This document shows, in pieces, positions 19,668-27,908 of a stretch of DNA of 64,000 bases. Every line of letters starts with the position of its first letter. Within the stretch, counting starts at the first letter, position 1. The notes beneath the pieces are model-generated. The model was given only the letters and a program-made list of their open reading frames with translations, searched no databases and was not told the origin of the DNA. Origin of the DNA: a virus; the IMG/VR virus record IMGVR_UViG_3300032087_006189. The stretch is one strand, 5' to 3'. The position numbers were made by a program, and so were the translations under genes.

Positions 19668-19872
19668 TCAGATTGAAGTTCGACTTTTTGCGAAGGTCGA
19701 CAAAAATGGCGACGAGTACTTTATTGGTAGCTCGGACGCACCTGCGCAGATCAACCTTCAAGACGCGACTTTTGTGTTCTTCCTCCCTCCCGAGGGAGAA
19801 ACGATTGGCGCTCTGAAGATTCGACCCAGAACCCCTCGAAGGTTCGGTCAAGATGGTGACGGGCCGTCTTAG
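19660..19872 (+). CDS. Hypothetical protein; stop codon lies inside tRNA-Thr
   Basis: MADQIEVRLFAKVDKNGDEYFIG...; overlaps the upstream stop. Confidence 0.65.
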   Translation: MADQIEVRLFAKVDKNGDEYFIGSSDAPAQINLQDATFVFFLPPEGETIGALKIRPRTPRRFGQDGDGPS

Positions 19873-19938
19873 CTCAGTTGGTAGAGCATCGGTTTTGTAA
19901 ACCGACGGTCGACGGTTCAAGTCCGTCAGGCGGCTCCA
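19863..19938 (+). tRNA. tRNA-Thr(UGU)
   Basis: GCCGTCT/AGGCGGC acceptor stem; anticodon loop TT-TGT-AA; GTTCAAG T-loop; CCA encoded. Confidence 0.95.
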
Positions 19939-20023
19939 GGAAGCGTGGCCGAGTGGTTTAAGGCACCGGTCTTGAAAACCGGCGAAGGGAAACCTTCCGT
20001 GAGTTCGAATCTCACCGCTTCCG
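19939..20023 (+). tRNA. tRNA-Ser(UGA)
   Basis: GGAAGCG/CGCTTCC stem; CT-TGA-AA loop; long variable arm; CCA not encoded. Confidence 0.95.
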
Positions 20024-20030
20024 CCCTCCA

Positions 20031-20105
20031 TGGGGCGTGGTGTAATTGGCAACACATCGGTTTTTGGCACCGACGTTCGGGGTTCGAGTCCCTGCGCCCC
20101 AGCCA
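20031..20105 (+). tRNA. tRNA-Gln(UUG)
   Basis: TGGGGCG/CGCCCCA stem (U1-A72); TT-TTG-GC loop; CCA encoded. Confidence 0.93.
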
Positions 20106-20183
20106 AGAGATACGCCTTGCTCTTGGCCTACTGCTCCATGCTACCCCCCTTCAAACCTATGGGGCAGTAGGCCAAGGCTTTGC

Positions 20184-20257
20184 AGGCCCGTAGCTCAGTC
20201 GGTCAGAGCACCCGGCTCATAACCGGAGGGTCGTCGGTTCGAGCCCGACCGGGCCTA
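20184..20257 (+). tRNA. tRNA with CAU anticodon, probably Ile2 (lysidine)
   Basis: AGGCCCG/CGGGCCT stem with C4-G69 and C5-G68; CGGCTCATAACCG arm; lacks initiator features; CCA not encoded. Confidence 0.85.
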
Positions 20258-20273
20258 CTCTTTTGGAGAGAGA

Positions 20274-20420
20274 ATGTACCAAGTAACTGTAGGAAATAAG
20301 GTCTTCTTTTCAGAAGACTACGATTGGAGCCTGCCGAAGACGCTGGCAGCAGCACGAGAATGGGCGGCAAAGAACGCGCCCCAGCAAGAGGTCAAGGTTG
20401 GCTTGATCTCCTTCTTGTAG
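20274..20420 (+). CDS. 48-aa peptide inside the tRNA cluster (MYQVTVGNKVFFSEDYDW...)
   Basis: GGAGAG RBS; fills the gap between two tRNAs; below the ORF-track size cutoff. Confidence 0.55.
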   Translation: MYQVTVGNKVFFSEDYDWSLPKTLAAAREWAAKNAPQQEVKVGLISFL

Positions 20421-20426
20421 TGACCT

Positions 20427-20503
20427 GCCTCGATAGCTCAGTTGGATAGAGCACCGGCCTTCTAAGCCGATGGTCCCAGGTTCGAATCCTGGTCGAGGCG
20501 CCA
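20427..20503 (+). tRNA. tRNA-Arg(UCU)
   Basis: GCCTCGA/TCGAGGC stem; CT-TCT-AA loop; CCA encoded. Confidence 0.95.
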
Positions 20504-21959: not shown

Positions 21960-22040
21960 CCCGGTAATACCTCGATCCTATCACGCGGCTCAATCAAGGG
22001 CACTTTTCCGTCATAATATTTGTAGAGAAAGGAGTCTCTG

Positions 22041-22238
22041 ATGCTGAAGAACTTTGTTGTGGTTTTCCTGATTTCCTTCATCTCCACCCTCGGCGCCATC
22101 GGCGCCGTGGTGCAGATCAACGAGCGAATGGCGGCCGATGCCGCCGTCGACTGCCGCCGTATGGCGGCACAGGCCGCCCAGTGGGAGGACCAGCAGGTCC
22201 CCCGCTGGTGCGAGAAGGTTCCGGGGTTCCGCGAGTAG
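22041..22238 (+). CDS. Small membrane protein in its own promoter-terminator cassette
   Basis: GTCATAAT at 22010, AAGGAG RBS, N-terminal TM helix. Confidence 0.7.
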   Translation: MLKNFVVVFLISFISTLGAIGAVVQINERMAADAAVDCRRMAAQAAQWEDQQVPRWCEKVPGFRE

Positions 22239-22259: not shown

Positions 22260-22463
22260 TCACTCCTCTTTAGCCATTGCTTTTAGATCTTCGATCGGAA
22301 GCTCGAGAGTACTGAATCTGTTTTCGCATTTCAGACACAGCCTCCTGCGGTAAACTAGATCTGGCCAGTCCTCCTTGAGACGCTGCACCCATGCGGTGCT
22401 AAAAGATCCATTCTTCCTGGTTTCCAAAACCTTGGTCCTGGCCAGACACTTTGGACATTCCAC
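22260..22463 (-). CDS. NrdR-type N-terminal Zn-ribbon protein
   Basis: CPKC...TKVLETR...RRRLCLKCENRFSTLE; GTG start with GAGGTG RBS; no ATP-cone domain. Confidence 0.75.
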   Translation of the reverse strand: MECPKCLARTKVLETRKNGSFSTAWVQRLKEDWPDLVYRRRLCLKCENRFSTLELPIEDLKAMAKEE

Positions 22464-22482
22464 GCACACCTCGGAGGCACAT

Positions 22483-23010
22483 ATGCACCGCTTTGCTCTC
22501 GATCCGTACCACACCGAGATTGAGTTCAAGATCAAGCATCTCATGATCTCGACTGTCCGCGGTCGGTTCAACACATTCAATGGCTCTATGGAGAGCACCT
22601 CCCTAACCAACTTCGCAGGATCAAAGATCGAGTTTTCTTGCGAAGTTGCGAGTATCGACACCGGAGTCAAAGATCGAGACGACCACCTGCGGTCTGCCGA
22701 CTTCTTCGATGTGGAGAAGCATCCCAACATGACCTTCCGATCGACCGCGATTGTTCAAGTCGGAGATGGCTACGATGTGTCCGGGTTGCTTACAATCTGC
22801 GGAGTGTCACGGCCCGTCTGCCTTGAAGCAGAGTTCAATGGCTGCGATCAAGATGCCGAAGGCAACATGAAGTACGGCTTCGACATGGACGGAGAGATCG
22901 ACCGAAAGGACTTCGGCCTTTCCTTCCAGGCTTTTGGCGGCGCAGGCCAGATGATGGTCGGCGAGAAGGTCAAGATCCAAATCTCAGCCCAGATGATGCT
23001 GATCAAATGA
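22483..23010 (+). CDS. YceI-family lipid/polyisoprenoid-binding protein
   Basis: LDPYHTEIEFKIKHLMISTVRGRF...RDDHLRSADFFDVEKHP...RKDFGL; no signal peptide. Confidence 0.92.
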   Translation: MHRFALDPYHTEIEFKIKHLMISTVRGRFNTFNGSMESTSLTNFAGSKIEFSCEVASIDTGVKDRDDHLRSADFFDVEKHPNMTFRSTAIVQVGDGYDVSGLLTICGVSRPVCLEAEFNGCDQDAEGNMKYGFDMDGEIDRKDFGLSFQAFGGAGQMMVGEKVKIQISAQMMLIK

Positions 23011-24272
23011 TTCCTCAGTGCTTTTCCCTTCGGTCTCTACTTTACGAGCCCAGAATGTTTTTGCAGGGACTTCCTCGGACCCTGCAGATTCAGGCATGGA
23101 CTGCGGGGACCGTGCTGCTTCTCCACATGGCGATGCTGTTTTGGAAAGCACTGACAGACCCATCTCTAGTTGCCTCGTTCTTGATGGAGGCGATGTTCGT
23201 CATCGTCTTGATCCGACTCCTTCGTTTTCGCGCGCTCAAGATTCGCGACAAACTGGAGGCGATTGACAAGACAAATCTCATCGTGAGGTTTCGCACAGAT
23301 CGCACAATTATCTCCGCCAACCCGCTGTTTTGCGATATCTCCGGCTACGAAGAGTCTGAGCTGAAAGGGTTGGCGCATACATCTCTCGTACCTGAAATCG
23401 CAGCAAGCTCCGAAGAATACGAGAGGTTCTGGCAGCACCTCCTTCTGGGTAGATCACACACGGGTGTATACGAGCGGATCAAAAAAGACGGATCCTCGTT
23501 CTGGCTCCAAGCCACCTACACTCCGATCCACGATGCTTCAGGCACGATCTACGAAATCCTGAAGATCGCAACAGACTTCACGCAGCAAGCAGACGATGCG
23601 ATGAGGCTGCGGCACAAGAATACCTATCTCGAGCACGCAGCCAAGATCCTGCGGCACGACATGCACAGCGGCATCAACACATACATGCCGCGCGGGCTTA
23701 GGTCTCTCAATCGAAAGCTGACCCCGGAAATCATAAAGGAGCTGAGAATCGCTGCTCCTCTCCGGCTTCTCGAGGATGGCCTGGCTCATACGCGAAAGGT
23801 CTATGAGGGCGTGAAGGAGTTTACGAATCTCGTAAAACCCGGCGAGACGCTAAACACTGAAGAACTCGATATAGGCGAGGTTCTCAAAGAGTACCTCGAA
23901 ACAACTGAGTATAAGCGGCAGGTGGCCTTTGATCGCCTGCCCAAAGCTAGAATCAATCGAGCCCTGTTCTGTACAGCGATAGACAATCTGATTAGAAACG
24001 GGCTCAAATACAACGACTCCGACTTCAAGATGGTCGCCCTTACTATGATTGATGATTCGCATCTGGCGATCATTGATAATGGTCGAGGGATGAGCCAGGA
24101 AGACTTCGAGACATACTCGAAGCCGTATGTACGAAAGTCAGGGCAAGCCGAAGCCGGAACCGGCCTCGGGCTCAACATCTGCATCGCCATTCTTCACGAG
24201 CACGGCTTCCCCGTCACCTGCGAGCGCAGCCCAGAGGGCGTGGGTACCATCATCAAGGTCAAGATCAAATGA
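23007..24272 (+). CDS. Membrane PAS-domain sensor histidine kinase
   Basis: Two TM helices; PAS (SANPLFCDISGY...KKDGSSFW); H-box LRHDM; N box NLIRNGLKY; DNGRG; GTGLGL. Confidence 0.92.
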   Translation: MIPQCFSLRSLLYEPRMFLQGLPRTLQIQAWTAGTVLLLHMAMLFWKALTDPSLVASFLMEAMFVIVLIRLLRFRALKIRDKLEAIDKTNLIVRFRTDRTIISANPLFCDISGYEESELKGLAHTSLVPEIAASSEEYERFWQHLLLGRSHTGVYERIKKDGSSFWLQATYTPIHDASGTIYEILKIATDFTQQADDAMRLRHKNTYLEHAAKILRHDMHSGINTYMPRGLRSLNRKLTPEIIKELRIAAPLRLLEDGLAHTRKVYEGVKEFTNLVKPGETLNTEELDIGEVLKEYLETTEYKRQVAFDRLPKARINRALFCTAIDNLIRNGLKYNDSDFKMVALTMIDDSHLAIIDNGRGMSQEDFETYSKPYVRKSGQAEAGTGLGLNICIAILHEHGFPVTCERSPEGVGTIIKVKIK

Positions 24273-24700
24273 TTCGCAGCATCCTTCTCGTAGACGACGA
24301 AGATCTGTTCCACATGGTGTTTGAGGACGCGTGCAGCTATCTCGATATCGCACTCGACCTACAAGCTCTCAGCTCCGCCGATGAAGCAGACAAGCTATTT
24401 GCTGGATGGCATGTCAACCCCACTGGCAAGCCAGAGTGCGTGTTCGTCGACCTCAACATCATCGGCTCCTCATTCGATGGAATCGAGTTGATTCGGCGGA
24501 TCAATCAAGAGCACGGCAATGGCTGCGTCATTGGGATCATCTCCTCATCTTCGGACCAGCAGGAGATCAATCAAGCCAAGGCTTGTGGCGCGCAGTTCTG
24601 GCTGGTGAAGTCGGATGAGATCGAGCCCCGCCTTGAAGCGTTTCGTAAGGACTACGACGGCTTCAAGTCACGATCAGTGGATTTCAAGGTCTATCAGTGA
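24269..24700 (+). CDS. Stand-alone response regulator receiver domain
   Basis: ILLVDD, FVDLN (phosphoacceptor Asp), DGIEL, IISS, conserved Lys; no output domain. Confidence 0.9.
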   Translation: MIRSILLVDDEDLFHMVFEDACSYLDIALDLQALSSADEADKLFAGWHVNPTGKPECVFVDLNIIGSSFDGIELIRRINQEHGNGCVIGIISSSSDQQEINQAKACGAQFWLVKSDEIEPRLEAFRKDYDGFKSRSVDFKVYQ

Positions 24701-25344
24701 TCAAGTTTGACGATCATTCCTGGGCCGCGCTGATTGCTATTGCTAGCAGCAGAAACGCGTATCTGTCCGGGAATGTCGTCAAGCTGATTGATGACGAAGA
24801 AAACCCGCTGTACCGCGAGTATCTCGACACAGCGATCAATCGAGACAAGGACAAGCAGAAGCAGCGTCTTGATGTGACCAAGAAGGCCCAGAAAGAAAAG
24901 AAGAAACTAGAAGAGGCGCAACAACGAAACGACCTGTTGATGAAGCGTCTTGAAGACTCCCTTGCGAGCACAAACCTCGCCAAAGAAGAGGCAGAGCAAG
25001 CGAAGCAGGTTTCAGACAAGCTTCGTGCAGAGGCAGAACGTGCGAGGGCTGCGGCAGAAAGGGCAAAGGATGAGGTTGAGCGAGACCTTGATGTCCTACA
25101 GCGCCGCACGCAGTCTCAGCTCATGCACAACATCGTCAACTCTGCGATCCAAGTGGTCATCGGAGTGGGCGGAATCACCAGCGCGCTTTACCTTTATGTA
25201 TTGGTATTTGGGGGACCAGAAACTCAGGTGTCGATGCTTGGGAACACCTGGTCGAACATGTTCGGAATCCTCCTCACAAACAGCTTTTCGATTATTGGCA
25301 CCGTTATGGGCGTGAAGTACGCAACCGAGAAACAGGGCGAATAA
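24697..25344 (+). CDS. Coiled-coil protein with two C-terminal TM helices
   Basis: Long charged heptad region then two hydrophobic segments; coupled to the receiver gene. Confidence 0.8.
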   Translation: MIKFDDHSWAALIAIASSRNAYLSGNVVKLIDDEENPLYREYLDTAINRDKDKQKQRLDVTKKAQKEKKKLEEAQQRNDLLMKRLEDSLASTNLAKEEAEQAKQVSDKLRAEAERARAAAERAKDEVERDLDVLQRRTQSQLMHNIVNSAIQVVIGVGGITSALYLYVLVFGGPETQVSMLGNTWSNMFGILLTNSFSIIGTVMGVKYATEKQGE

Positions 25345-25360
25345 GCGTCATAATATACAT

Positions 25361-25798
25361 ATGGAAAACAATACCATGCAGGTGAAAGACCTGCGGGGGA
25401 TGCTTTCCGCCCCGATGACGGTCGGGTATCTCGCTTCTGAGGTACACGAGCTCATCGAAGCTGTGCTGGAGTGCAGCGTCGACCACATCCGTGAGGAGTG
25501 GAATGACGTGGCCTTCAGTGTCCTTTGCCTGGTGGCGCAGGCATATCCCGCGGCAGATGAGTGGCGAGTTCTTGATGGACTCGGTCGCTCGTCGTGCGAG
25601 AAGTTTCTCTCCCGGATCAATGTCTGGGTTGAGATCTGCTCGCATCACGGGGTCGACTTCGATCGCGAGTCTCTCGCGGGAGGGTCCAACTACCGCAAGC
25701 GCACGAAAGTGGCGCGGGTGTTGGGCTTCCACGAAGTTGAGGACATCGACTGGGAGTGGATTTCCACCCTGGTCGGCGGCTTCGAAGTCGAGGCGTGA
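25361..25798 (+). CDS. Hypothetical protein (weak MazG-like E/D helical pattern)
   Basis: GTCATAAT at 25347; SEVHELIEA...IREEWNDV. Confidence 0.6.
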   Translation: MENNTMQVKDLRGMLSAPMTVGYLASEVHELIEAVLECSVDHIREEWNDVAFSVLCLVAQAYPAADEWRVLDGLGRSSCEKFLSRINVWVEICSHHGVDFDRESLAGGSNYRKRTKVARVLGFHEVEDIDWEWISTLVGGFEVEA

Positions 25799-25929
25799 GC
25801 GTTCACCCAGTAAAGTGCCGCCGTTTTCGGTTGCGGTAGGGGTAGCAGGTAAAAGCTGCGCTTCCCCTTTTAGTTTGTAAAATTCTACATAAAAGAGGGC
25901 ATAAGTAAGTTGCTCAAGAGGAGGTATCC

Positions 25930-26472
25930 ATGAGCTCTTTCGCAGTCAATGCGTTTGCCCGCCGCCAGACTCCCGAGTCTGGCTTCTCCCACTTCGGTGG
26001 GACGGAATGCGAGCTTCTCGCCATCGTCGAAGAGAACTTCGGCAACGCCAATCCCGGCTACCGGGATGGTGTTGTGCTGGTCCCGGTCCCGCCGGAGGGG
26101 TTCTTCTCCGGGGTCACCACCCTCACCGCCGGCCAGAAGATGGTCGGCACCTTCGAGTCCCGTAGGGACGGCGAAGCGCCCCGCAAGCAGCTTCGTGCTG
26201 CTGAGGGCGCAAAGCTTCCCGCAGCTGCCGTTGACATCGTTCTGTACCGGAACGACGTCCTCGGCTCCGACGCCACCACGGAGGCCACCTGGGAGGTGAT
26301 CTCCATCAACGCTCGGCCAACGGCCGAGCCGGAGCCAATCCATCCGGAAACGCTGCTCCACAACCACTTCGGAAGCTCTGGGGGCACTGAGACCGGCATG
26401 ACCGATGCGGAGCTGTGCCACCAGCTCCGCGAGTCTTTCCTGTACTGGAAGGACAAGGCCATGCTGGCCTGA
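25930..26472 (+). CDS. DUF3228-like protein
   Basis: NAFARRQ...GYRDG...VDIVLY...WEVISINA...PIHPETLLHNH...SGGT; strong RBS. Confidence 0.7.
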   Translation: MSSFAVNAFARRQTPESGFSHFGGTECELLAIVEENFGNANPGYRDGVVLVPVPPEGFFSGVTTLTAGQKMVGTFESRRDGEAPRKQLRAAEGAKLPAAAVDIVLYRNDVLGSDATTEATWEVISINARPTAEPEPIHPETLLHNHFGSSGGTETGMTDAELCHQLRESFLYWKDKAMLA

Positions 26473-26531
26473 TTCTCAAGAGGGGCCGATTCGTCGGTCC
26501 CTCTCCCATGTTTTCACCAAAGGAGGCCATC

Positions 26532-26819
26532 ATGGCTGAAACTGTCGTCGTCACTCGCCATGCTGCGTATGTGCAGCACCTCATCAACATCGGGCTCATC
26601 GAATCCGGCTGCGAAGTCGTCGGACACGCCACAGCCGAGACTGTGGCAGGGAAACATGTGATCACCAGCGGCTTGCCGCTGCACCTTGCCGCGCTTGCGG
26701 CGAAGCTCACGACTGTGGGCCTCTTTCTGCCGCCCGAGCTCCGCGGCAAGGAACTCACCCTTGAGGAGGTGGCCGCGCACGCGCAGCCGCCCGCGTCCTA
26801 CGTCGTCACTGCGGCGTAG
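26532..26819 (+). CDS. Csx16 (Cas_VVA1548)-like protein, candidate ring nuclease
   Basis: VVTRH...LPLHLAA...LPPELRGKELTLEE signature; AAGGAGG RBS. Confidence 0.75.
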   Translation: MAETVVVTRHAAYVQHLINIGLIESGCEVVGHATAETVAGKHVITSGLPLHLAALAAKLTTVGLFLPPELRGKELTLEEVAAHAQPPASYVVTAA

Positions 26820-26906
26820 TGGCCCGCCCTCCGGGGCGGGCAGGGCCTTCGGGCCCTTCGTTAGCCCGTACTCCGTGTTACGTGGCAGGGCTTTTGGAGT
26901 CCTATC

Positions 26907-27089
26907 ATGTTCCTCATCCTACTCTTCGCCTTCGATCAACCCAAGCCACCTGAGTGCGTCATTGACCAGTGCGAGGCAGAAATCTGCCTTGTTGATACCC
27001 CAGAGGGCATGGTCTCTGTTCCCAAGAAACGCCACTACAAAGAGGGCACCCCAGTGGAGTGCCCTCTGTACCTGATTGAGCCTACCTGA
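26907..27089 (+). CDS. Small Cys-containing protein
   Basis: GGAG RBS; 60 aa. Confidence 0.55.
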   Translation: MFLILLFAFDQPKPPECVIDQCEAEICLVDTPEGMVSVPKKRHYKEGTPVECPLYLIEPT

Positions 27090-27908
27090 CTACCACTCGT
27101 CGAGGAGTGTGTAGCTGAAGGTGGCGCGGCCAGTCTTCTCGACCTGCATGTGTGCGAGTTCCATCATGCGGGCGAAGCCGACCTGAGTGGCATGGACCTG
27201 ACAGCCTGCAGACCACTTGTTGACCTGAGTAGACTCACCGCCGACTCGCTGAGTCGCGGCGTGCAAGTTGATGCCGTACAGACCGCGGACGATGGTAGCG
27301 GGGTCCATGTCAAGGTTGTTGTCCCGGTTGGAGTCTCGGTAGACGCGAACCTCACCGTTCCGCTGACACAGGGCGGTGTACTTTCCACCGTGCTTGTCGA
27401 TCTTCCACACATCAAGGTACTGGCCCTCTACAAGAATGGCTGTCCCGGACGACTTGCTGGGGTTTTCCAGCCAGTAGGTTCCGGGGTCGGTGGTTCCGGG
27501 CCAGTACTCTACATTGCAGGTACCGCCTTCATCAAACCACGCACAGCCGAGGGTGTCGTCAAATGCGTTTGCTTCACGGCTGGGGCTGCGGATGCCAAAG
27601 AGCCAGAGTCGGTAAGGTGTGTCCCACACCTGATGCCCCAGCTCTTGCGCCTTCTTCATCACGGGAGGAAGACCCTCTGATTGGATGGTGATGCTGGGCT
27701 TTGAGGAGGCCATCAGCTCTGCCCAAGTACCCCGACCGATGATGCCGTCGGCATCCAGCCCCTTTGCCCGCTGAAAGGCAACAGCTGCAGCCGCAGTTCC
27801 TTTCCCGAAGATCCCGTCTACATCGCAGGTGAAGCCGTGCTCATTCAGCTTCTGCTGTGCGAGCTTGACTGCGTCACCACGAGATCCAACTTTTACCAAC
27901 TGCATCAT
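27090..27908 (-). CDS. Putative endolysin: peptidoglycan-binding domain + His/Cys (L,D-transpeptidase-like) catalytic domain
   Basis: PG_binding_1 pattern (GSRGDAVK..Q..L...DGIFGKGT..AV.AFQ...DGIIG..TW); GINLH...WSAGCQV. Confidence 0.75.
   Translation of the reverse strand: MMQLVKVGSRGDAVKLAQQKLNEHGFTCDVDGIFGKGTAAAAVAFQRAKGLDADGIIGRGTWAELMASSKPSITIQSEGLPPVMKKAQELGHQVWDTPYRLWLFGIRSPSREANAFDDTLGCAWFDEGGTCNVEYWPGTTDPGTYWLENPSKSSGTAILVEGQYLDVWKIDKHGGKYTALCQRNGEVRVYRDSNRDNNLDMDPATIVRGLYGINLHAATQRVGGESTQVNKWSAGCQVHATQVGFARMMELAHMQVEKTGRATFSYTLLDEW

Follow-up and report, generated by a model that had tools for sequence, protein, structure and literature searches.

Class I (HisKA-type) histidine kinases that work with a stand-alone receiver, such as CheA/CheY, DivJ/DivK and the Spo0F-type systems, share an H-box histidine and N, G1 and G2 boxes in the kinase, and a DD pair, a D, an S/T, an aromatic residue and a K in the receiver. 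The same residues are found in two adjacent, coupled genes in a 64,000-nt stretch of DNA (IMG/VR virus record IMGVR_UViG_3300032087_006189), referred to here, at its full length, as the window, which comes from a large uncultured marine phage of the lytic type. These genes lie within a four-gene unit on the + strand (22483-25344) that encodes a YceI-like protein, a histidine kinase, a stand-alone receiver, and a fourth protein for which we use the working name CC, a coiled coil ending in a two-helix membrane hairpin. As in the bacterial pairs, output probably occurs by protein contact, but the system is encoded by a phage and where they act on a motor, a phosphotransferase or a transcription factor, its constant partner is a membrane hairpin protein found in phages only.

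Another parallel is offered by DivK~P, which acts on the pseudokinase DivL to control CckA; a receiver-like CckA inhibitor also exists (PMC5361649, PMC9430884). In both cases a single-domain receiver would regulate a signalling protein by binding, and in a Bacteroidota cousin of the phage system (see below) the N-terminal domain of CC (N-domain) stands before a HisKA/HATPase core, directly after the receiver gene. However, the N-domain has no sequence relation to DivL or CckA, the regulated part in the phages is a membrane hairpin and not a kinase, and binding is what we propose here.

The phages that have been studied time lysis by holin clocks and a few antiholins, and we know of none that runs its own His-Asp phosphorelay for lysis timing. 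In T4, the antiholins RI and RIII act with the holin T (PMC8385771), and in N4 the lysis regulator gp62, a protein with two transmembrane (TM) helices and both termini in the cytoplasm, acts with the pinholin gp63 (PMC12642591). These are dedicated phage proteins, encoded in or beside the lysis genes, that adjust holin firing on a signal, which is the role we propose for CC. The resemblance is functional only, as there is no sequence or fold similarity between them and CC: no homology to T4 RI, RIII or holin T was detected, CC has no PHROG, and neither CC nor the receiver has a match in 50,697 deposited phage records. The inputs differ as well, T4 being believed to receive a periplasmic superinfection signal via RI, whereas here a cue from the cytoplasm or the membrane would enter through a His-Asp phosphorelay, or through PAS or GAF domains fused to the hairpin. 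For the "receiver domain" named in the paper on the N4 pinholin, a REC identity was considered and rejected, since the likeness is one of name only (PMC12642591).

Taken as a whole, the data are best explained by a phage-encoded phosphorelay that controls a lysis-linked membrane effector, a reading to which we give an even chance. The device itself is real, widespread and phage-specific as far as sequence comparison can tell, and combines known parts with a new output; its function is deduced from comparative genomics only. A literature search returned no description of a kinase-receiver-CC module. New in this work are an exact insertion/deletion of the YceI gene together with the recurrent, position-variable linkage of YceI to the module (including sensor-less kinases), a cousin from Bacteroidota through which the N-domain is recognised as an input, and the insertion of a rhodopsin gene into the module of some relatives. 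If the proposed function is correct, lysis timing in nature would be conditional on host physiology, with effects on burst size, viral production and carbon release.

Signalling residues, gene linkage and selection

The YceI-like protein (175 amino acids (aa), 22483..23010), the histidine kinase (421 aa, 23007..24272), the receiver (143 aa, 24269..24700) and CC (215 aa, 24697..25344) were all identified on the + strand from the list of open reading frames (ORFs), with Pfam matches for the first three and an alignment and a structural model for CC. Stop and start codons overlap by 4 nt at all three junctions (ATGA at YceI/kinase and kinase/receiver, GTGA at receiver/CC), which agrees with an earlier, sequence-only reading of this region as a complete phage-borne operon of four translationally coupled genes. 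The unit is indeed complete, intact and phage-borne, and the phage context is evident from the endolysin, T4-type topoisomerase II, ligase and helicase also encoded in the window. Its description as a four-gene operon has to be narrowed: the conserved unit consists of three genes, kinase, receiver and CC (the trio), and YceI, absent from a sister phage 75% identical, is optional. The YceI/kinase (22996-23013) and kinase/receiver (24258-24275) junctions carry the identical 13 nt GATCAAATGATTC, which may be a recombination or coupling signal for cassette insertion, and kinase, receiver and CC alike start with Met-Ile.

Pfam identifies PAS_3 (2e-12) and HATPase_c (4.3e-12) domains in the kinase, while its HisKA model has no match to the helical domain bearing the phospho-histidine (DHp). 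The predicted phospho-accepting residue is His217 in 'LRHDMHSGIN' (codon 23655..23657, + strand). The region 'ILRHDMHSGIN' aligns with the H-box 'HVASHDIKEPL' of the solved kinase 8F71, and in 67 relatives the H-box 'KNxYLEHAAKILRHDMHSGINTY' is nearly invariant and His217 itself invariant. The ATPase boxes are found at residues 326-336 (N), 357-361 (G1, 'DNGRG') and 384-389 (G2, 'GTGLGL'). Hydropathy indicates one clear and one weaker hydrophobic segment, at residues about 30-46 and 54-72, ahead of a PAS sensor domain (residues 93-195, 23283..23591, + strand) that is the most variable part of the kinase among relatives. Its best match among solved structures is the PAS pair of MmoS (3EWK, 1.7e-13); phototropin LOV domains align at 1e-6, and the window PAS reads 'LAHTSLV' where a LOV domain would have its adduct cysteine (NCRFLQ). 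Sensor sets across the kinase family comprise none, PAS, PAS-PAS, GAF-PAS and GAF-PAS-PAS, all of them cytoplasmic domain types. Judged by these residues, the kinase is anchored in the inner membrane and has a cytoplasmic PAS domain and a competent His217/ATPase core.

The receiver has Response_reg (5.5e-10) as the sole Pfam match in its 143 aa, and D9/D10, D61, S92, W111 and K114 are all present, Asp61 being the predicted phospho-acceptor (codon 24449-24451, + strand). Across 59 relatives, conservation extends to the D, S and K positions. The receiver is the best conserved of the genes, 63-75% identical across loci, and the trio loci span 28-57% G+C, with up to 67% in one contig of a metagenome-assembled genome (MAG). 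These characters describe a complete CheY-like domain that lacks an output domain, and those of the pair are the ones expected of a class I two-component system. The earlier statements that the phosphorelay residues are intact and that the receiver has no output domain were thus borne out.

The same holds for the description of the last gene as a long coiled coil with two TM helices, on which hydropathy and an AlphaFold2 model agree. The model of CC (pLDDT, the predicted local distance difference test, 88) consists of a small N-domain, one helix (residues 37-171) that continues into the first TM helix (TM1), a tight turn and a second TM helix (TM2); hydropathy places the TM segments at residues 153-171 and 188-206. 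The membrane hairpin (residues 150-207, 25144..25317, + strand) contains the invariant motif 'TWSNxFGILLTNxFSIxGT.MGVK'. Because Lys and Arg border it at each of its cytoplasmic ends, with a neutral or acidic loop between the helices, both termini are predicted to be cytoplasmic (N-in/C-in). No Pfam family matches CC above threshold, none of 25 members of its family has a PHROGs match beyond chance level, and a Foldseek search of the PDB with the model gave trivial helical-hairpin matches only (E > 2). The family comprises 2526 clusters at 90% identity and is common in marine and freshwater viromes, yet it has neither a Pfam or PHROG entry nor a cultured representative.

Relatives of the kinase occur on more than 568 viral (IMG/VR) contigs, and kinase, receiver and CC stand together in all 93 fetched viral loci that had enough flanking sequence. 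When about 185,000 prokaryote species, with one genome per species, were scanned by pattern, CC turned up in no more than eight contigs, all from MAGs and spread over eight phyla, and the two of these eight that were examined both carry strong phage-family genes, including a virion structural protein adjoining the trio. On this evidence the relatives are phage-borne. The Atlas clusters nearest to CC are 94-100% viral. Neither the region nor the receiver nor CC had a match when the 50,697 deposited phage records were searched with DNA and protein.

Selection could be estimated from L226, a contig of Tara Oceans that is collinear with the window and has about 75% of its nucleotides in common with it. 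Non-synonymous and synonymous differences per site are, respectively, 0.21 and 0.78 for the kinase, 0.07 and 0.77 for the receiver, and 0.11 and 0.51 for CC; synonymous sites are saturated for the kinase and the receiver (proportion of synonymous differences, pS, about 0.77) and half changed for CC (0.51). Since non-synonymous change is far below synonymous change and the catalytic motifs are conserved in 59-67 relatives, the module is under selection and, on these comparisons, probably functional. It could be argued that the unit is bacterial DNA that was captured recently and is now decaying, or a chimera produced in assembly, as the sequence-only reading had itself envisaged, and a cellular cousin of kinase and receiver does exist in a Bacteroidota MAG. 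We find this hardly credible: no frame or motif is disrupted, there is strong purifying selection, an independent Tara contig has the region in collinear order, an identical CC protein occurs on 6 contigs (one of 154,958 nt), and the more than 568 viral contigs with relatives contradict it as well.

Exchange of the proposed input domain and the hairpin

How the parts may work together was read from proteins in which they have been exchanged. Invariant positions of CC include G25, N26, Y42, R57, K62 and Q65. The N-domain of CC (residues 1-103, 24697..25005, + strand), our candidate receiver-docking module, recurs as the N-terminus of 318-349-aa proteins whose remaining part is a HisKA/HATPase kinase core, and the alignment of the CC N-domain with that of the HisKA kinases is highly significant (hhalign, 99.8% probability, E 6e-29). 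Structural models show the same small domain and one unbroken helix in both; in the kinase-fused protein this helix forms DHp helix 1, and in CC it forms TM1. The kinase-fused proteins directly follow a 143-aa receiver that is 65-66% identical to that of the window. One such locus, L245:5669-9050 from a Bacteroidota MAG, encodes a PAS kinase, a 143-aa receiver and then a protein with a CC N-domain and HisKA/HATPase_c, and its flanking genes are clearly cellular (a protein sorted by the type IX secretion system, CreD and a HAD hydrolase). It was the alignment-based genome scan that gave this cousin; a scan with a single kinase-fused N-domain protein returned unrelated kinase cores only. The cousin is a tractable system for the study of signalling from receiver to N-domain.

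The opposite exchange is found in L098 and L099, where the distal helix and the invariant hairpin of CC are fused straight to two PAS domains. Relatives of this PAS-PAS-hairpin fusion are present on at least 180 viral contigs, and fusions of the hairpin to a single PAS or to a GAF domain also occur. None of the 80 fetched PAS-hairpin fusion loci contains a kinase core or a receiver. The receiver is thus present exactly when the CC N-domain is present, and gone where PAS or GAF replaces it. We infer from this pattern that the N-domain is a transferable input module travelling with the receiver and the hairpin a transferable output module. Because the receiver occurs exactly with the N-domain, the simplest reading of the signal path is kinase to receiver to N-domain to helix to hairpin: the kinase would phosphorylate the receiver, the phosphorylated receiver would dock on the N-domain of CC, and the long helix would relay the change to the hairpin, the presumed real output. 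The suggestion made in the earlier reading that the receiver acts by contact on the membrane protein is in this way favoured by strict co-occurrence and by the domain-swap relatives. Two parts open to direct test emerge, a putative receiver-docking domain that would also drive a bacterial kinase, and a transferable membrane hairpin.

Single-domain receivers act via protein contact, and the partner of this one, the best conserved of the genes at 63-75% identity, might mainly be a host protein, with CheY-like cross-talk to motility, kinases or transcription and with CC as a membrane scaffold or phosphate sink. We consider this improbable. The receiver keeps the same level of conservation in phages ranging from 28 to 67% G+C, which probably have very different hosts, and in the bacterial cousin, and this conservation fits an internal partner and not a host target. 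The receiver also vanishes exactly where PAS or GAF replaces the CC N-domain, and the N-domain, found on kinases too, is a transferable input module. Cross-talk with host pathways, the other outlet that had been proposed for the receiver, obtained no support.

A search for longer fusions of CC gave two proteins, one of which has a 240-residue N-terminal extension of no known type. In a metagenome protein of 348 aa, P0185, the hairpin is replaced by a permease of the FecCD type, which follows the N-domain and helix of CC; the protein may be a real recombinant or an assembly chimera and, being a single cluster, is treated here as a possible chimera.

Endolysin neighbourhood and a possible role in lysis

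The output of the proposed relay, from kinase to receiver to CC, was approached through the neighbours of the trio, which were clustered in 60 dereplicated loci, with recurrent clusters annotated. Endolysin-type genes are concentrated next to the trio, 32 of 34 lying at most 1 kb from it, which corresponds to a density of 2.9 per 10 kb, while no 1-kb bin up to 10 kb away exceeds 0.13 per 10 kb. At least four catalytic families are represented (Amidase_2 with PG_binding_1, GH19, M15 and the phrog_3000 type), and the genes stand upstream on the same strand, downstream or divergent; because the arrangements differ, this clustering is not one inherited synteny block. A holin-like gene, encoding a protein with two to four TM helices at the Phage_holin_4_1 threshold, is often also near the trio. 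Next to the PAS-hairpin fusion, too, there is a Phage_lysozyme gene, or else an endolysin together with a small TM protein. The endolysin of the window itself (27090..27908, - strand) has PG_binding_1 and a phrog_3000/33083-type domain and is located 1746 nt downstream of CC; its homologues adjoin the trio or the PAS-hairpin fusion in other phages. The holin-like cluster that is frequent in relatives has no homologue in the window, where CC is the sole small multi-TM protein within 18-34 kb. A class II holin is a small N-in/C-in protein with two TM helices, encoded beside the endolysin. CC has two TM helices but is 215 aa long, and its adjacency to an endolysin is strong in relatives and loose (1.7 kb) in the window.

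With moderate confidence, this neighbourhood points to action of the hairpin in the lysis pathway, where it could be a holin-like pore former or a regulator of the holin. The relay would then advance or delay lysis of the host according to the internal state of the infected cell. The link to lysis timing made in the earlier reading stands in so far as endolysins cluster at most 1 kb from the trio in relatives; for the window itself it is weakened by an endolysin 1.7 kb away on the other strand, so that the link rests mostly on relatives.

Several observations weigh against a lysis-controlling relay. The lysis role is based on gene neighbourhood only, and half of the 60 loci have no recognised endolysin within 5 kb. 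In the window, three small accessory genes and a separate promoter motif lie between CC and the endolysin, which is 1.7 kb off on the opposite strand. CC belongs to no holin family in Pfam or PHROGs and matches no solved fold, and a protein of 215 aa with a 150-residue cytoplasmic part is atypical for a holin. Many loci have a separate holin-like gene, for which reason CC may be a regulator and not the pore. YceI is dispensable in the close relative L226. Finally, the module shares the sequence GTCATAA with replication genes, which points to early or middle, not late, expression.

The motif GTCATAA, which is of promoter type, has 18 copies on the + strand of the window and none on the - strand, with 2.9 expected (for example at 2756, 22010, 25347, 27933 and 48030). 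One copy (22010..22016, + strand) lies upstream of the unit in TTTCCGTCATAATATTTGTAGAG, identical in L226, and is the candidate operon promoter; it precedes a 65-aa single-TM ORF and a hairpin. The next (25347..25353, + strand), 2 nt past the stop codon of CC, starts a separate MazG-like unit. Others stand before the topoisomerase and at the start of the ligase ORF, and its presence at these two genes argues for early or middle expression of the module, as would suit a regulator more than a late holin of the classical kind. A sigma-70 promoter scan of 20.4-28.2 kb found none, and no GTCATAA-like motif was seen by eye in 22262-22482. The unit, bounded by promoter motifs and without a recognisable promoter of its own, may be transcribed by read-through from 22010, antisense to the zinc-ribbon gene described below.

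A relay that controls some other membrane process, such as superinfection exclusion, ion leak or adjustment of membrane potential, or envelope remodelling, would account for several of these points, with the proximity of endolysins reflecting a shared island of membrane and accessory genes. It agrees with the half of the loci that lack a recognised endolysin nearby, with the lack of homology between CC and any holin, with the promoter motif common to the module and early-type genes, and with the position of the window region in an accessory island of rapid turnover, in which MazG-like, Cas_VVA1548-like and CCA-enzyme genes have been swapped between sisters. What it does not readily explain is an endolysin density that, in the first 1 kb around the trio, exceeds that at greater distances by more than 20-fold, a clustering that survives both replacement of the endolysin family and changes of gene order and that holds independently in the PAS-hairpin fusion clade. 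Since CC is in no known holin family and half of the loci have no nearby endolysin, a different membrane function stays a real rival to control of lysis, though we hold it to be unlikely.

In four viral contigs, a compact microbial rhodopsin of 192-193 aa is inserted between the receiver (followed by a small TM protein) and CC (L029:12029-12610 on the + strand, L016:7547-8125, L056:12036-12617 and L228-L231). It matches Pfam Bac_rhodopsin (1.2e-13), its nearest solved structure is proteorhodopsin (5e-13), and it retains RYxDW, WxxYP and the Schiff-base Lys (DxxAK); Gln replaces the proton donor Glu108 of proteorhodopsin, a feature of the sensory type. In these relatives the rhodopsin may provide a light input to the same relay. 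SRII-HtrII is a sensory rhodopsin with a two-TM coiled-coil transducer, and the relatives carrying the rhodopsin, although not the window, likewise combine a photoreceptor with a neighbouring coiled-coil protein of two TM helices, here accompanied by kinase and receiver. The TM hairpin of CC is however C-terminal and not N-terminal as in HtrII, and CC has no homology to Htr beyond trivial hairpin matches. More generally, many aquatic phage lineages might share a modular device of sensor, long helix and membrane hairpin that gates lysis, with either a PAS/GAF fusion or a His-Asp relay as input, the latter accepting YceI or a photoreceptor as a plug-in, so that lysis would be timed by the respiratory, membrane or light state of the host; we put this forward tentatively and with some doubt.

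Two other proteins recur with the module, neither of them with a confident family. One of 165 aa, with two or three TM helices and a coiled coil, lies between receiver and CC in L003 (5410-5907) and 12 other loci. The second, of about 400 aa with four TM helices and an EF-hand-like motif, is frequently encoded just after the holin-like protein (L028:12906-14069 and 15 other loci).

The optional YceI gene and the flanking region

The first gene of the unit encodes a full-length YceI domain (Pfam, 2.8e-47, model positions 1-149 of 150), as in the lipocalin-like proteins of known structure (1WUB, 5W2X, 1Y0G). The closest of these is TT1927b of Thermus (1WUB), a polyisoprenoid-binding protein (2.3e-40), and the polyisoprenoid binding of the family is taken from the PDB titles of solved relatives. 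The PDB entries of several of these relatives describe them as periplasmic or secreted, whereas the window copy has no signal peptide, as the sequence-only reading had noted. The alignment begins at residue 2 of TT1927b, so that the mature barrel is there from the start, and GGAGG stands 5 nt before the ATG. The in-frame extension upstream of this ATG lacks a hydrophobic core and runs into a conserved gene on the minus strand, and a leader is absent in all five phage YceIs compared (that of the window and four related ones). The window copy also differs from the solved proteins in its place within a phage signalling operon, YceI in related loci being next to sensor-less kinases.

In comparison with L226, the window has an exact 524-nt insertion of YceI (22483-23006) between the start of the minus-strand zinc-ribbon gene and that of the kinase. 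Because the sister phage lacks exactly those 524 nt, YceI is, by this comparison, an optional accessory and not part of the conserved three-gene core. A third relative (the P0006 contig, with a CC 70% identical) is arranged like the window, YceI and MazG included. A profile scan gave 44 viral YceI loci, of which 16 are within the module, 14 with YceI directly ahead of the kinase and 2 with YceI between kinase and receiver. All YceIs at least 45% identical to that of the window are linked to the module where the contig extends far enough, two truncated contigs being impossible to judge. In L102 (55% G+C) and L103 (34% G+C), YceI directly precedes a 294-296-aa sensor-less kinase made of two TM helices and the catalytic core, with overlapping reading frames in the former and a 2-nt gap in the latter. 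At L232:179-2523, YceI is followed by a 301-aa sensor-less kinase, a receiver and the N-domain fused to a second kinase core. Among the 50,697 phage records, YceI matches came only from unannotated or multi-contig records that are apparently contaminated with cellular DNA.

These linkages suggest that YceI is probably an accessory ligand-binding partner or co-sensor of the kinase. As an optional cytoplasmic co-sensor, it might take an isoprenoid lipid (a quinone or a polyprenyl carrier) from the membrane and modulate the kinase, and might thus add an input of membrane or respiratory state to that of the PAS domain. If so, this soluble YceI may represent the first case of a kinase with a lipid-binding co-sensor in the cytoplasm. 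On a different view, YceI is no sensor and either serves as an effector, withdrawing quinone or the polyprenyl-phosphate carrier lipid so that the envelope is weakened ahead of lysis, or is a passenger gene. The binding of polyisoprenoids by the family (PDB titles), the absence of the gene from L226, the 28 of 44 viral YceI loci away from the module, and several loci where YceI is back-to-back with a GH19 endolysin are all compatible with this. It nonetheless seems rather unlikely to us, given that close relatives (at least 45% identity) are inside the module wherever this can be judged (in all but the two truncated contigs), that YceI has entered at two distinct points with tight spacing to kinase or receiver genes, and that it pairs with sensor-less kinases, including a relative with a second kinase core as output and cellular-looking, non-lytic genes downstream.

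Upstream of YceI, a 67-aa NrdR-like zinc-ribbon protein with four Cys (22260..22463, - strand; Pfam Zn_ribbon_NrdR, 3.2e-09) is encoded divergently. It is 77.6% identical over 67 aa in L226, and the P0006 contig has a 63-aa minus-strand gene at the same place. The zinc-ribbon start codon is 19 nt from the YceI start in the window and 5 nt from the operon in L226, and it is possible that this gene and the operon, whose leader would be antisense to it, regulate each other. Further upstream, the 65-aa ORF (22041..22238, + strand) encodes a protein with one N-terminal TM helix and no Pfam family, which belongs only doubtfully to the unit; in L226 its place is taken by a hydrophobic peptide of 36 aa that is unrelated to it. 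A cluster of five tRNAs (Thr, Ser, Gln, Met, Arg) is located at 19863-20503, 2 kb upstream of the operon.

Downstream of CC, positions 25361-27089 form an accessory island of fast turnover when compared with L226:3679-6272. The window island contains the MazG-like gene and a Cas_VVA1548-like gene (PF09652, 3.2e-12, 26535-26819), whereas that of L226 lacks the latter and has a 113-aa gene and a PolyA_pol/CCA-type enzyme instead. A DUF3228-like gene is common to both, with 86% nucleotide identity.

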